Positions 8,076 through 64,000 of a stretch of 64,000 bases of DNA are shown here, one piece after another. Each line of letters starts with the position of its first letter. Positions within the stretch are counted from its first letter, which is position 1. The notes under the pieces are model-generated. The model saw only the letters and a list, made by a program, of their open reading frames with translations. It did no database searches and was not told where the DNA came from. The stretch covers positions 27,714,001 to 27,778,000 of the forward strand of contig OZ024760.1 in assembly GCA_964016885.1 (NCBI GenBank), read 5' to 3'. The position numbers were made by a program, and so were the translations under genes. The stretch comes from Eledone cirrhosa. Taxonomy: Eukaryota.

Positions 8076-8213
8076 AGAGTAGAATGTGGATCCATGCATA
8101 TATATATATATACACCTACATAGATATAATATAAATGCACACACACACACACACACACACACATATATACAATGATATTAAATAAATGGAAACTATATTT
8201 ATAAAACCATATT

Positions 8214-8277
8214 TATTTTATTATATATATTTCAAGGGTACTATGACAACATTGGTACGCTTTCATCAGATAAAATA
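8214..8277 (-). ncRNA. Minimal type I hammerhead ribozyme motif
   Basis: Reverse complement: tattttat CTGATGA aagcgtacc..agtaccctt GAAA tatat ATA ataaaata. Confidence 0.75.
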
Positions 8278-8391
8278 CAAAGTTTGTTTTATAAATAGAG
8301 ACATACCCATGAAAAACATACCTTATCGGTTGACTATCCAGTGAATTTCCAACCGATAAGGTATGATTTTTCATTTATAAAACAAACTTTG

Positions 8392-8455
8392 TATTTTATC
8401 TGATGAAAGCATACCAAAGTTGTCTTGGTACCCTTGAAATATATATCATAAAATA
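8392..8455 (+). ncRNA. Minimal type I hammerhead ribozyme motif (AUC site)
   Basis: tattttat CTGATGA aagcatacc aaagttgtctt ggtaccctt GAAA tatat ATC ataaaata; stems I and II pair and stem III is short and palindromic. Confidence 0.8.
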
Positions 8456-8612
8456 AATATGGTTTTATAAATATAGTTTCCATTTAATATCATTGAATAT
8501 TTACTCCACTAATTTGTTGAGTGCTCTAAATCAGTTATAAACATTTATATTTGTCGGACTTACAAGAAATTAAATACCCCTTCTACTTATACATATATAT
8601 ATATGTATATAT

Positions 8613-10765
8613 ATCATCATCATCATCATCACCGTTTTACATCCGTTCTTCCACGCTAGCATGGGTTAGACAGGTTGTCCTGTTGTCGGCAGTGTCCGGT
8701 CGGCTGACTTTGTCTTGCTCATATGGGAACTGATTCTGGCTTGATTTCTACAGCTGGATGCCCTTCCTAACACCAACCTCATTTACAGTGAGTGCTGGGT
8801 CCTTTTTTTTGCCGTGGCACCTACACGTCCACTTTACAGTGTGGGCTGGGTGCTTTTTAGCCGTGGCACCTCCACGACCACTTAGCAGTGGGAGGGTGTG
8901 GGGGCATATTGTCTATATGCTTCAGCTTCGGCTTGTACCCGTGGCGAGGGGGGGTGGGTCTTCTGTATTACTGCGTGACGCCAGAGGTCACGATCGTGTG
9001 TCATCGCCTTTGAGAGGTGTTATTGGATAAGGTCGGCTTTTATCACCTCATCCCAGGTCTTCTTGGGTCTCCCCACTCCACAGCTTCCATCGACTTCTAG
9101 TGCTCTGCACCTTTTTATGCAGCTGTCATCCTTCATACGCATCACATGTCCATACCAACGCAACCGCCTCTTCTGCACACAGAATTTGATTCCTCTTATG
9201 CTCAGTCTCTCAATTCATTTATGCTTTACCATTCGCGTATATTACTATTACACATCCATCGGAGCATGCAGGCTTCGTTTCTTTCTAATCTATGCAAGTC
9301 TTCTACAGACAGCGCCTAGGTCTCACTACCATGTAACATTGCTGTTCATATACACGCATCATACAGTCTGCCTTTCCTTTTGAGGGAAAAGCCTTTTGCA
9401 GCTAGCAGTGGCAGTAGCTCCCTGAACTTCTTCCACCCCGTTTTTACCCTAGTTATTGTACTTTCCTAACACCCACCTCCGCTACTAATTCTGCCACCTA
9501 GGTAGCACAAGCTGTCTACTGTTTCTACAGAGCCCTCCCAGAGTTTGGTGGTACTTTGGCTGTTCACGGCTTGCTGTCCCAGCACAGCTGCTGCATGTGA
9601 AGCCTACATCTCTTGTGTACCCATTGTTTGCATTTGGGGCAGAGAATGGAGTTCCTACATACTGAGCAAGGCCATTTCCCTGAGGGGATCTGGGTCCTGT
9701 TTTCTCGTCTACTTACAAGGACCTTAGTCTTTGTCAGGTTGACTTTGAGACCATTTCTTTCTAGTCCCTGCTTCCAAGTTTGGAATTTCTTCTCTAGTTC
9801 TATCATAGATTCAGCTATAAGTGCGAGGTCATCTGCATACAGGAGTTCCCATGGGCATCCAGTCTTAAACCCTTCCGTTATTGCCTGCAGGACTATGATG
9901 AACTGGAGAGGGCTAAGAACAGAGCCCTGGTGGACACCGACCTGTACGCTAAATTCCTCGCTATACTCATTGCTAATCCTAACTTTGCATGGCTTGTACA
10001 GCTTTCACAAGCCATTTATCTACTAGTTTTCTAAGAGCCCACCAGATTATAGCATGGGGAACTCTGTCAAAGGCTTTCTCAAGATCAACAAATGCCAGGT
10101 AGAGTGGCTTACTTTTAGCTAGGTACTTTTCCTGTAACTGCCTCAAAAGGAAGAGGGCATCAGTGGTGCCTCTTCCTGGCACAAACCCAAATTGCATCTT
10201 ATCTAGTTTCACCCGGTCCCTAATCAACTGCGCTATAACTCTTTCTGTTACTTTCATGACCTGGTCCATCAGCTTTATACCTCTATAGTTTCCTCTATCT
10301 AGTGCATCACCTTTACCTTTGTAGCAGTTGACAATGATGTTACTGCACCAATCCTTTGGTATGACACCTTCTAGTATTACCTGGTTAACAATACGTGTGG
10401 TTATAGTGTGACCTACCGACCCGGATACCTTCAGCATCTCGGCAGCTATACCCGATGGACCGGTTGCCTTCCCCGTCTTCATATCTTTGATTGCCTTACT
10501 TACTACGCTGCTGCTGACTTGTACTGCTGGCCCCTCTATAGGGTCTACTTGGGGTAGGGTCTTTTCTTCCCAGGCATTCTTCTCATTTAGTAATCTATCA
10601 TAATGGCTCTTCCCCACATCTTACTTCTCAGCACTTCTGAGGGCAATCTCACCTTTATCATTCTGGATACACTTCTCTCCAATGACATCACAATTCTCTC
10701 TGACACTACTGCCTCACAATCTTGAACACCTCCTGTTTCTGGTCCTCACATTGCAAAACATGCTT
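8613..10765 (-). mobile_element. RTE-clade LINE, subfamily A, 5'-truncated and degenerate
   Basis: RT motifs GNYRGIKL, QFGFVPGRGTTDALF, FVDLEKAFDRVP, YADD; PHD-like CxxC insert; (GAT)n 3' tail. Confidence 0.93.
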
Positions 10766-10817
10766 GAATTATATATATATATATATATGTATGTATATAT
10801 ATGTATATATAAATATA

Positions 10818-10949
10818 CAGCACTCACTGTAAATGAGGTTGGTGTTAGGAAGGGCATCCAGCTGTAGAAATCAAGCCAGAATCAGTTCCCGTCCCATCCT
10901 TGCAAGCAAGGAAAAAGCGGACGTGAAATGATGATGATGATGATGATGA
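10818..10949 (+). mobile_element. 3' part of tRNA-SINE with RTE-like tail
   Basis: Matches the tail of SINE copies at 15037-16592 and ends in (gat)n. Confidence 0.8.
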
Positions 10950-11226
10950 CCAAAAGTTAAACAAGTTTCATTGATTAATCAATGAATATAGTTTTACAAT
11001 AAATTAGAAGCACTCAACAGTTAAGTTTTCTGGAGTTATTAATATTAATTCAAAATATTAATAAATATAGACATTCATTAATAAATATATGACATACCTC
11101 AACTGTGCTGATGGTTCAATTCCAGTCCTGCCAACACTGGAATTGAACCATCAGCACAGTTGAGGTATGCTATACATCAATTTATATATTTTATCTGATG
11201 AGGACGTACTGAAAAAACAGCACAGC
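10950..11226. mobile_element. Fold-back element, family C fragment (34-bp arms 11093-11126 / 11136-11169) with truncated hammerhead 5' half
   Basis: Perfect arms; tattttatctgatgaggacgtactgaaaaaacagcacag matches 26348-26386. Confidence 0.75.
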
Positions 11227-11382
11227 TAGCGTGGAAAACGGACGTTAAACGAAGATGCTGATGATGATGATATGTATATGTACACACACATATATATATG
11301 TCATCATCATCATCATCATCATCGTTTAACGTCCATCTTTCACGCTTGCATGGGTTTGGACGGTGTATGTATATATATATAT

Positions 11383-11748
11383 ATTGCTATACTTGGGGAG
11401 GGTCATGTTGTTGTAATAATATTGCCAGAATTAATAACAGAACACACTCACTGTTATTATTTCTATTGGCAGTATCGGTAGAGGGTTGGACGCCATGCTT
11501 TGACACATAGAGTTACGGCCCTTGCCATTCTGAGTTCAAATCCAGCCGAGGTTAACTTTGCCTTTCATCCTTACGGGGTCGATAAAATAAAGTACCAGTA
11601 ATGTACTGGGTAATTGCTGGCCTTGTGCCAATAGTAGAAACAATTATTTCTGGCAATATTATTACACAAATATGACCCTCCCCAAGTATAACAATATTTG
11701 TTTCGACACGATTTCATATCAAAAACCTCGCAAAACTAATTCATCGCC
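11383..11748. mobile_element. Fold-back family B ends with a tRNA-SINE (11466-11650) between them
   Basis: Left and right ends match 25654-26130 and 35472-35958; SINE A box tggcagtatcgg and B box gagttcaaatcc. Confidence 0.7.
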
Positions 11749-62748: not shown

Positions 62749-62801
62749 CCTCAACAATGGTCTGTATGTGTAATTTCCACGTATTCTCTTTCTTATCCCA
62801 G

Positions 62802-62932
62802 ATGATGTGTGCACTGTTGTGGATAGAATCCCTCCGTTTACTAACATAGTACCAGACAACCCAAATGATTTGGCCAGCGCATTCATTTTTTCAACCAAAG
62901 AATTACTTCGGCTAACTGATGATGCCAAATGC
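62802..62932 (+). CDS. Internal coding exon (131 bp, phase 1-0) continuing the same gene
   Basis: ttctctttcttatcccag| acceptor; tgc|gtaagt donor; (D)DVCTVVDRIPPFTNIVPDNPNDLASAFIFSTKELLRLTDDAKC. Confidence 0.72.
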
Positions 62933-63156
62933 GTAAGTAGAAATAGTAGCAGCTATTGCTACATCATTCATGCCAAATTATAGATGAATCACCCTACATA
63001 CTTCTCTCTCTCTCTCTCTCTCTCTCTCTCTCTCTCTCTCTCTCTCTCTCTCTCTCTATATATATATATATATATATATATATATATATATGAGAATTAG
63101 AACCCTGTAACCATTAAGCTCTAAGTATAAAGTACAAATAAATACTGAGCCGATTA

Positions 63157-63239
63157 ACAATATATAGTAAGAAACACAGTAAACCGTGTGTCTTGTAATT
63201 TTAGACACACGGTTTACTGTGTTTCTTACTATATATTGT
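63157..63239. repeat. Perfect 37-bp inverted repeat (fold-back family J), TA-flanked
   Basis: acaatatatagtaagaaacacagtaaaccgtgtgtct / agacacacggtttactgtgtttcttactatatattgt. Confidence 0.88.
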
Positions 63240-63362
63240 ATATATATATATATATATAACGAAGGAAATGTGGTAAGGAACCAGGTGGACCATAACGCAC
63301 CAAAGTACTCAATACTTAGGGTAGTAGAGTGGGTAATAGGAATAAGTCTTACTTGTTCCTAT

Positions 63363-63592
63363 ATCATCATCATCATCATCATCATCATCAACGTTTAACG
63401 TCCGTGTTCCACGCTTGCATGGGTTTGGACGGGGGTTTTCCCACTTGAGGCAAGAGTGATTATCTTGCTCACATAGGACTGTCTGGCGGGTTTTCTACAG
63501 CTGGATGCCCTTCCTAACACCAACCACATTTACAGTGTGGGGCTGGGAGGTTTTTACCATGTTGCCTACACGGCCACATTACAGCGTGGACT
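63363..63592 (-). mobile_element. RTE subfamily B 3' UTR fragment
   Basis: Matches 13580-13793. Confidence 0.85.
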
Positions 63593-63619
63593 ATATATAT
63601 ATAATAAATATATAGAATA

Positions 63620-63694
63620 AATTCTTTCTGATGATTGAAGGCAGATGTAAATTTCAAGCTCGTCTGTCTTCATGAAACCTTTGGTAAATGAATT
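63620..63694 (+). ncRNA. Type I hammerhead motif (GUA site) related to the Penelope-like 3' hammerhead
   Basis: aattcttt CTGATGA ttgaaggcagatg..cgtctgtcttcat GAAAC ctttg GTA aatgaatt, followed by cttatgttgttt as at 33968. Confidence 0.78.
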
Positions 63695-63870
63695 AATTAT
63701 CTTATGTTGTTTAATGTATAACTATATATATATATAAAAACAATAAGTTTTATGGTTAACTGAGCTGATTTTATAACAGACATGAAGCACTCTACTCTAC
63801 AGTATTTATCTGGAGTATTATTAATGTTAACAATATTAATAAATGGAAAGTATCTATATAATACCATATT

Positions 63871-63930
63871 TATTTTATTATAAGTATTTCAAGGATACTA
63901 AATTTTAGTGTGCTTTCATCAGATAAAATA
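63871..63930 (-). ncRNA. Minimal hammerhead motif in a family A-like fold-back running off the window end
   Basis: Reverse complement: tattttat CTGATGA aagcacacta..tagtatcctt GAAAT actt ATA ataaaata; palindrome centre near 63977. Confidence 0.68.
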
Positions 63931-64000
63931 TAATATTTGGTGTTAAAATATTGACATACCTTAGTGTAAACTTATACTAGTAAGCTTACACTAAGGTATG

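Follow-up and report, generated by a model that had tools for sequence, protein, structure and literature searches.

The 64,000-nucleotide (nt) window of Eledone cirrhosa DNA analysed here (contig OZ024760.1, positions 27,714,001 to 27,778,000) is TA-rich animal DNA with several open reading frames (ORFs) of LINEs (long interspersed nuclear elements), and it holds one coding Penelope-like element at 27428-34067 and about 25 short elements that lie in or beside (TA)n. Most of the short elements are head-to-head palindromes with a one-sided tail, which measures 42-92 nt to the next simple repeat. Penelope-like elements of the Hydra clade were found to carry a hairpin twice at the junction of repeat end and ORF start, and their genomic ends lie a few bases before the first hairpin (tail-less ends) or the second (tail-bearing ends), at AU-rich words that match the target. 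With a probability of about 0.7, most of the short palindromes are insertion products of this clade, made by two enzymes on two RNA hairpins, each priming from the nicked (TA)n. The cited publications were covered in part, and statements about them refer to the parts covered.

Short fold-back elements in (TA)n

A sequence-only reading of the window had described more than a dozen short palindromic elements with a unique tail on one side and TA repeats alongside, and this description was borne out. Self-comparison after masking of simple repeats recovered local inverted repeats at each site of that reading (Table 1), with arms 84-99% identical. The tail was present in 15 of 15 elements compared arm against arm. 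In all of these but E, hence in 14, the tail-less arm adjoins (TA)n or some other simple repeat. The census also takes in copies at 11382, 23753, 25141, 46323, 55700, 62222, 63259 and 63604, which had not been listed. Families A and C, formerly kept apart, proved to be one superfamily, 70-78% alike. The claim that independent copies begin the inverted arm at the same base holds for B (11382, 25654, 35472 and 56103) and for C at 26197 and 39139, both opened by ttattcaaaatatt, but not for C at 10950, where this opening is missing; the claim of a variable fold-back point fails in D, whose 5' end is preferred and which ends at an identical base in all three palindromic copies. A palindrome of 105 nt (42961-43065), next to a 400 nt stretch that ends at TA (42560-43110), was left out because its layout differs from that of the fold-back elements.

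Three contig sets and the raw Illumina run X21 were mapped to 25640-27580. X21 is a reduced-representation run from another sample under the same species label, X1 may be the source sample of the window rather than an independent one, and X5 comes from another organism. The mapping of 35,560 X1 contigs and 227,549 X21 reads shows that the families are highly repeated, although summed depth is not copy number. TA letters stand directly before the B arm start in 1113 of 1124 X21 reads, and (AT)n stands at the D arm start in 3251, in agreement with X1 (97) and X5 (3). Two fold-back joints of D were found in 54 and 32 X21 reads. Joints and flanks together show that the palindromes are no artefact and that the arm start is fixed beyond this locus; the short palindromes are real, high-copy repeats.

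A descriptor of the type I hammerhead ribozyme matched the window 9 times, whereas 60 block shuffles averaged 0.05 matches. The window matches are two each in A1, C2 and the coding element, and one each in C3, A3 and at 23753. By eye, D carries a 3' half hammerhead and E a whole one with a variant core, while family I has a half hammerhead at 58696 and, in a second copy, a complete one at 62418. The earlier assignment of whole or half hammerheads to A, C, D, E and I stands, but the roster was incomplete, as a whole hammerhead in B (35707 minus, 55908 plus) and a degenerate one in F, seen by eye, had been missed. A search of the window against Rfam (E values up to 5) returned no hammerhead family and only microRNA-like chance matches among the 150 of 384 matches listed. 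Scans with the A/C hammerhead pattern gave two chance-like matches in bacterial or archaeal genomes and none in viral contigs, and single-sequence folding of eight hammerhead regions did not discriminate (z +0.3 to -2.0).

The coding element

On its sequence, the coding element is identified as a 5'-truncated Hydra-clade Penelope-like element. It shares the layout of the short elements, as had been proposed, with an inverted arm, a sense copy, a tail and (TA)n on both sides. Its arms match over 2740 nt with 2 mismatches and 1089 nt between them, the tail-bearing arm being 1089 nt longer. The single ORF aligns over its full length with relatives at 43-60% identity (120 relatives among the matches listed), whose clusters include Acropora millepora proteins. 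It encodes a reverse transcriptase (RT) and then a C-terminal GIY-YIG domain with the V-Y and Y-V-G words and the conserved R, H, E and N (22 relatives aligned); Pfam gave no match to the Hydra ORF. DKT stands in place of DKG, with D30, K31 and T32 invariant in the alignment of relatives, and the CxCx5C linker (C471, C473, C479), a CxxC (C574, C577) and a CxH (C605, H607) are present. The region of the RWK motif was removed by the 5' truncation, and an RW word is found there in 21 of the 22 aligned relatives. A hammerhead after the ORF and the (TA)n insertion site are further marks of the clade. Its tendency to lengths below 3 kb, which is not a strict criterion in PMC8557442, is not seen: the sense copy, though truncated, already measures 3.9 kb owing to its low-complexity 3' region of 2 kb. 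The two hammerheads (32425 and 33908) are 83% alike and lie 1483 nt apart with mostly purine-pyrimidine repeats between them, and this unstable stretch is nearly identical in both arms.

A twin hairpin in Hydra loci from elsewhere

Alignment-based scans of metagenome contigs and of contigs from metagenome-assembled genomes (MAGs) gave 78 + 12 = 90 Hydra loci of other animals, or 74 families at 85% identity; a single-protein metagenome scan and a viral scan found no Hydra relatives. The 90 loci repeat the layout seen in the window, with a hammerhead about 70-250 nt past the stop codon, (TA)n flanks and inverted copies. L082 holds a fold-back of 280 nt, with a tail, that matches the 3' end of the ORF-bearing L088 element, which shows that coding Hydra elements leave such short products. 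The contigs of L079-L090, filed as bacterial MAGs, hold Hydra elements together with TA-rich animal DNA and are probably host contamination.

The hairpin of these loci has the form GCTC-stem-UH bulge-GAGCRCT. Of 55 loci with sequence before the ORF, 29 (from 25 of 47 families) carry it there twice and 14 once; the paired hairpins are 55-83 nt apart, and the second ends 9-39 nt before the first ATG. After the stop codon, 58 loci have 250 nt or more of sequence, and 33 of them show the hairpin on the sense strand, where 2.3 were expected from shuffles; nine loci were scored antisense, and the hairpin core is nearly self-complementary. Only 3 matches fall inside ORFs, in 144,007 bases. A structure-based descriptor recovered 83 distinct hairpins before ORFs, with 0.14 expected.

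Two features that were not used for selection are almost invariant: the bulge-closing pair is kept in 87 of 88 distinct hairpins (C-G 57, U-A 29, U-G 1), and all 88 begin the bulge with U. Covariation over 73 of the 88 hairpins reached 0.227, against 0.099 in shuffles (0 of 500) and at most 0.133 with slid partners, a value that relatedness can inflate. Compensated outer stems, TCTC/GAGA (4) and GCAC/GTGC (2), occur in ORF-linked loci. A reversed tail motif that had been considered for the coding element was rejected, as GAGCACT and GAGTGCT are compensated forms of one another. No Rfam family matched the hairpin in six Hydra loci. Among the published Hydra consensus sequences, the hairpin is visible in three of six (Hydra-2_Amil, Hydra-1_Ajap twice, and Hydra-2_Ajap), with a variant in Hydra-1_Crog (PMC8557442).

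The bulge, which in the 88 hairpins is U followed by A, C or U, never G, between two helices, is like the cleavage triplet of a hammerhead without the catalytic core, and the likeness may be a coincidence. At L008, L016, L049 and L086, full-length Hydra 5' ends adjoin (TA)n within about 15 nt of the hairpin, and look as if copying had stopped at the hairpins of the previous unit.

Insertion ends and the hairpins of the window

Alignment of the 3' copy with the tandem 5' copy gave 58 rows. Dropped were 23 that reached the end of a contig or of the compared stretch, 3 whose alignment reached the end of the compared 5' stretch and 2 that aligned only on TA; 30 were kept. In 23 of the 30 (19 of 24 families) the end lies -4 to +6 nt before a hairpin: the first in 8 cases, the second in 7, and in 8 more the only one scored. 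The last shared bases are mostly AU-rich words, for example TAT or ATA. Since tail-less copies end at hairpin 1 and tailed copies at hairpin 2, the length of the tail is likely to be the spacing of the hairpins.

The same hairpin is present in the window. A covariance model built from the foreign loci only (E values rough) placed its top window matches in the tails of the coding element, A1, D0, A2, C2, C1, D1 and D3 (E 7.6e-6 to 0.052), and the structure descriptor gave 10 window matches against 1.08 in shuffles, 9 of them in tails of these elements. The hairpins of A, C, D and I have the ACTC/GAGT form with a compensated A-U outer pair. In the coding element and in A1, C2, D2, D3, F and I, the arm of the window copy ends -1 to +5 nt ahead of the hairpin. 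Families A, C, D and I show what is found at Hydra ends: a hammerhead upstream of the end (whole in A, C and I2, a 3' half in D) and a hairpin of the A-U form in the tail, with the arm end just before it.

The Penelope-like character that had been proposed for the system is upheld, and for the coding element DKT, CxCx5C, CxxC and CxH narrow it to the Hydra clade. The shared tail hairpin supports extending this assignment to A, C, D and I, and more weakly to E, F, J and K. No hairpin was found in four tails of B and H, which are AC-rich. These two families, with the same layout but a different tail, were not filed as Hydra-type and probably belong to another Penelope clade. The word TTTCATATC is common to the B and H tails.

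Table 1. Coding element and short elements of the window, with inverted repeats from self-comparison
Feature	Position	Strand	Inverted repeat	Description
Hydra-clade Penelope-like insertion	27428-34067	+		inverted tail-less arm 27428-30167, sense copy 30168-33996, tail 33997-34067
RT + C-terminal GIY-YIG ORF	30168-32031	+		open; about 100 N-terminal residues missing
First hammerhead copy	32418-32480	+		degenerate; 83% to second copy; core 32425
Type I hammerhead	33901-33961	+		descriptor match
Tail hairpin, G-C form	34002-34025	+		5 nt past end point of tail-less arm; model E 7.6e-6
A1	8171-8592	+	8171-8494	fold-back, hammerhead in both arms; A-U hairpin 8503-8525 in tail
A2	27170-27413	-	27318-27397	fold-back cut within hammerhead helix II; hairpin 27236-27257
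A3	63737-64000	-	start at 63955	tail, hairpin 63786-63816, hammerhead; palindrome cut by window end
A4	46260-46414 (approximate)	+		A-type piece; 5' hammerhead half
A5	23660-24000 (5' bound approximate)	-		tail-less A/C-like end, whole hammerhead, CT-rich upstream part
C1	10950-11225	-	11077-11185	hairpin 11009-11036 in tail; internally deleted; a later insertion cuts the other arm
C2	26197-26556	+	26198-26459	complete fold-back; two hammerheads; hairpin 26469-26496
C3	39139-39411	-	39193-39411	fold-back; tail removed by neighbouring insertion
D0	25141-25260	+		older copy, single arm, with hairpin
D1	26607-26801	-	26687-26800	tail, hairpin 26653-26679, 3' half hammerhead, 5' end 26741-26747
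D2	61416-61611	-	61497-61608	layout of D1, hairpin mutated
D3	63259-63362	-		tail and 13 nt inverted arm; hairpin 63304-63330
I1	58696-58938	+	present	fold-back, 3' half hammerhead; long-loop hairpin 58864-58908
I2	62222-62440	-		single-arm copy, both hammerhead halves (core 62418)
E	41372-41798	-	present	fold-back, refolded centre; variant-core hammerhead; imperfect hairpin (partly by eye)
F	42030-42246	+	present	old fold-back; degenerate hammerhead; hairpin with G-U pair (partly by eye)
J	63091-63239	-	present	short fold-back; variant 3' flank on hairpin; part present without hammerhead (partly by eye)
K	63604-63722	+		tail-less end, relative of coding element; hammerhead core 63628; 81% over 48 nt to 33941-33988
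B0	11382-11740	+		fold-back; dispersed repeat 11465-11649 in centre; tail without hairpin
B1	25654-26130	+	25654-26087	fold-back, refolded centre; tail without hairpin
B2	35472-35958	+	35471-35914	tail-less arm longer, extends through hammerhead (core 35707, minus)
B4	55700-56103 (5' bound approximate)	+		tail-less B-type copy; hammerhead core 55908
H	56152-56655	-	present	450 nt fold-back; AC-rich tail without hairpin; only 5' hammerhead core word

Preferred 5' ends

Thirteen distinct joints of family D were among those listed, the best 15 of 116 joints. The sense arm starts at 26747-26748 in 9 of the 13, five of them with only CC or TCC between the arms. The stop of the other (tailed) arm varies between 26650 and 26702, and several of the stops fall on a three-letter word that the 5' end also has. 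D1 and D2 end at the same preferred 5' end, and (TA)n stands directly before it in four X4 contigs. The 5' ends of D cluster within about 5 nt; because of this preferred end, D is not a product of random truncation. D was probably copied from an RNA whose start is set by a promoter, and the odds are about even between a coding-element leader and a non-coding master as the source of that RNA. With the consensus upstream of D (agreement 0.56, by eye), the 5' end would fit an initiator pattern, with a TATA-like word about 31 nt before that end, a lead only.

The 5' ends of A/C lie 22-38 nt before a shared word in four copies. This word resembles a 5' splice donor and stands at 8323, 11100, 39278 and 63961 (minus), between 5' end and hammerhead; no acceptor was seen in these copies. 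B-type copies (55810-55865, 35750-35760) carry GCGCATGCGC and a AAGATGGCG/AAAATGGCG word upstream of the hammerhead, which we take to resemble promoter motifs. A word like a tRNA B box on the antisense strand of C1 was dropped, as it is not kept in C2 or C3.

Proposed mechanism

In the proposed mechanism, two enzyme molecules would dock on the two conserved RNA hairpins, 55-100 nt apart. Each hairpin would bind one RT-endonuclease and set its start site, and the tail would correspond to the distance between the two sites. Two antisense cDNAs would then grow inward from both target ends and join at short shared words, which would give head-to-head arms of independent length. Short copies would form where little RNA lies upstream of the hairpins; in family D the template may be an RNA whose 5' end is fixed, probably by a promoter. 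Such copies would retain only hairpin 1 and be largely dead ends supplied by source loci elsewhere, and self-priming at the joint could act as a secondary event in the refolded centres of B1 and E. Dimerisation of the enzyme is assumed by analogy with the system of PMC11167929. That the hairpin pair forms the docking sites that fix both RT starts and that, as it lies near the 5' end of the RNA, leader-only copies have filled the genome with fixed-length fold-backs such as D is close to an even bet, on the lower side.

If this is correct, hairpin spacing would account for the long-unexplained tail, and twin priming for the head-to-head palindromes. The formation of tail and head-to-head repeats in Penelope-like elements has been named as an open problem (PMC8557442), and an in vitro study found two start sites with no conserved signal for them (PMC11167929). 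A strongly covarying motif of 20-30 nt that occurs in pairs and is linked to each of the two ends in dozens of families would make the mechanism testable by mutation. The hairpin could also serve as a simple tag to find and orient Hydra-type ends, and short palindromes that are easily filed as miniature inverted-repeat transposable elements (MITEs), short interspersed nuclear elements (SINEs) or microRNA-like hairpins could be reassigned to their real source.

Several observations weigh against the two-enzyme mechanism and the Hydra origin. Seven of the 30 aligned ends were not scored next to a hairpin, four lying 27-134 nt away and three being without a strict hairpin in the tandem copy. The covariance model misses D2, E, F, I and J and finds A3 only at E 1.1, and hairpin 2 is not visible for any window family. 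The role suggested for the hairpins is argued from position and covariation, and the start sites in Anolis were reported to have no homology to the target (PMC11167929). As to family D, the right arm of the reference itself begins at 26747, which biases the joint starts, taken from the best 15 of 116 joints; moreover, 60 contigs extend further upstream than the 5' end of D, and A5 runs upstream for 250 nt or more. Some snap-back is evident from the refolded centres of B1 and E. Finally, no Hydra ORF or remnant was found next to the short families (about 25 copies in the window), and none of the 90 loci clearly showed the A-U form of the hairpin linked to an ORF.

Alternative explanations

The alternative that survives best is that A/C, D, I and others are true non-autonomous families with retrozyme-like or SINE-like non-coding masters, which Hydra enzymes would move in trans by way of the same hairpins. 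It differs from the mechanism above only in the source of the RNA, and it is a serious contender, even if the balance leans against it. The two points just named, the absence of a neighbouring ORF and of the A-U hairpin in ORF-linked loci, speak for it, as do the preferred 5' end of D and a summed contig depth of D about nine times that of the end of the coding family (3.3 million against 0.36 million, which is not copy number). Retrozymes, moreover, derive from Penelope repeat ends (bioRxiv 10.64898/2026.07.22.740005), and non-autonomous Chlamys elements exist. It is opposed by the window, where no tandem units with two hammerheads are found and copies are without hairpin 2, and by L082/L088, where a coding element has left the same short product.

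It is unlikely that every short copy is simply full-length retrotransposition aborted early, with 5' ends at random. In favour of this reading, Penelope-like elements typically suffer heavy 5' truncation, as the coding element itself has; the cuts in A2, D3, J and I1 are scattered; and A5 reaches far upstream. The narrow clustering of the D ends and the distance of 22-38 nt between the four A/C ends and their shared word speak against it.

Self-priming (snap-back) of a single strand, in place of two primings, is harder still to defend. PMC3846280 attributes junction palindromes of rotifer Penelope elements to self-priming, and the near-perfect centres of C3 and I, like the refolded ones of B1 and E, would fit it. 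However, the tail-less arm reaches further 5' in B2, A1 and C2, and the reverse is found in the coding element. A tail-primed cDNA cannot yield a second arm longer than the first, as in B2, A1 and C2, nor can a tail-less cDNA gain a tail, and the D joints lie at short shared words. Since the longer arm may be the tailed or the tail-less one, two independent priming events on RNA are favoured over snap-back; two cDNAs primed from both target ends allow both patterns of arm length.

MITEs of the Tc1/mariner type, with terminal inverted repeats and TA duplications, or assembly chimeras can practically be dismissed, despite the TA flanks, the filled centre of B0, which looks like such an element, and the 99.9% likeness of the coding-element arms, since all 15 elements compared have asymmetric ends with a 42-92 nt tail beyond the repeat, hammerheads and hairpins are features of retroelements, arms differ by 1-16%, and raw X21 reads carry the fold-back joints.

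Comparison with known systems

The fold-back population itself is of a known kind, because the layout, the TA target, the hammerhead, the inverted copy and the tail have been published (PMC8557442, PMC3846280, PMC11167929), and the window is a dense sample of the insertion pattern of a known retroelement. Together, PMC8557442, PMC11167929, bioRxiv 10.64898/2026.07.22.740005, PMC7229834, PMC3846280, PMC4209133 and PMC13282606 cover the layout features and non-coding Penelope derivatives.

Craig and others described the Hydra clade with (TA)n targets and hammerheads, and an inverted copy with a 30-40 nt tail as general to such elements (Craig et al., 2021, PMC8557442). The coding element agrees with the clade in DKT, CxCx5C, CxxC, CxH, (TA)n, the post-ORF hammerhead and the inverted 5'-truncated copy. 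By eye, Hydra-1_Obim is the closest listed member, and it shares a variant RT4 stretch with the window ORF. The tails are longer here (64-92 nt), and the coding element differs in its 2 kb 3' region, mostly of purine-pyrimidine repeats, and in its two distant hammerheads.

PAc is a Poseidon-clade element of Anolis carolinensis whose enzyme nicks both target strands and extends them, starting at two internal sites on the RNA that delimit the tail (Frangieh et al., 2024, PMC11167929). Both strands extended, two tail-bounding starts and a template at the repeat-ORF junction are in common with the mechanism proposed here. In PAc, hammerhead cleavage is dispensable and a dimer is predicted. PAc has one AC-rich stem-loop inside the ORF and starts unlike the target, whereas here the ORF is preceded by two sequence-conserved hairpins, and (TA)n is matched by the start words.

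Non-LTR retrozymes, which are without long terminal repeats (LTRs), are likewise short, non-coding, high-copy elements derived from Penelope repeats, with a type I hammerhead (PMC7229834; bioRxiv 10.64898/2026.07.22.740005). They form head-to-tail tandems, each unit with a hammerhead, that give circular RNA, whereas the window elements are single or head-to-head insertions with a tail. In the rotifer Adineta vaga, solo Penelope pseudo-LTRs and inverted insertions of a pseudo-LTR plus tail share the inverted repeat ends, the one-sided tail, the junction palindromes and the TATA-like and initiator-like words, but differ in their target duplications and 31 nt tails; solo copies were attributed to recombination or deletion (PMC3846280).

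Relative to the literature searched, the twin hairpin, its tie to both ends, its compensated form in four families and the fixed end of D are new. The sections of PMC8557442 covered mention neither the hairpin nor its duplication nor a connection with the ends, and the literature searches listed no paper on it, a scope that leaves Repbase, Dfam, subscription papers, figures and further supplements outside.

Other repeats in the window

A LINE ORF with endonuclease and RT (18696-23033, minus) runs into a TA-rich tract of 1.3 kb, beyond which lies an inverted copy of its 3' part (17564-18256, plus). Pieces of RTE-like LINEs with a PHD-like finger were found at 9000-13150, 36870-38940 and 59475-61187, one of them split by TA-rich DNA, and the C-terminal part of a further LINE ORF with a zinc-binding motif, apparently of the restriction-endonuclease-like type, lies at 49635-50873 (minus). 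A dispersed SINE-like repeat of 185 nt occurs at 11465-11649, 36037-36220, 61872-62054 and 58039-58171, and one of its copies fills the centre of B0. Long minisatellite arrays at 2000-6000, 43600-49300 and 51000-55500 yield spurious open frames.

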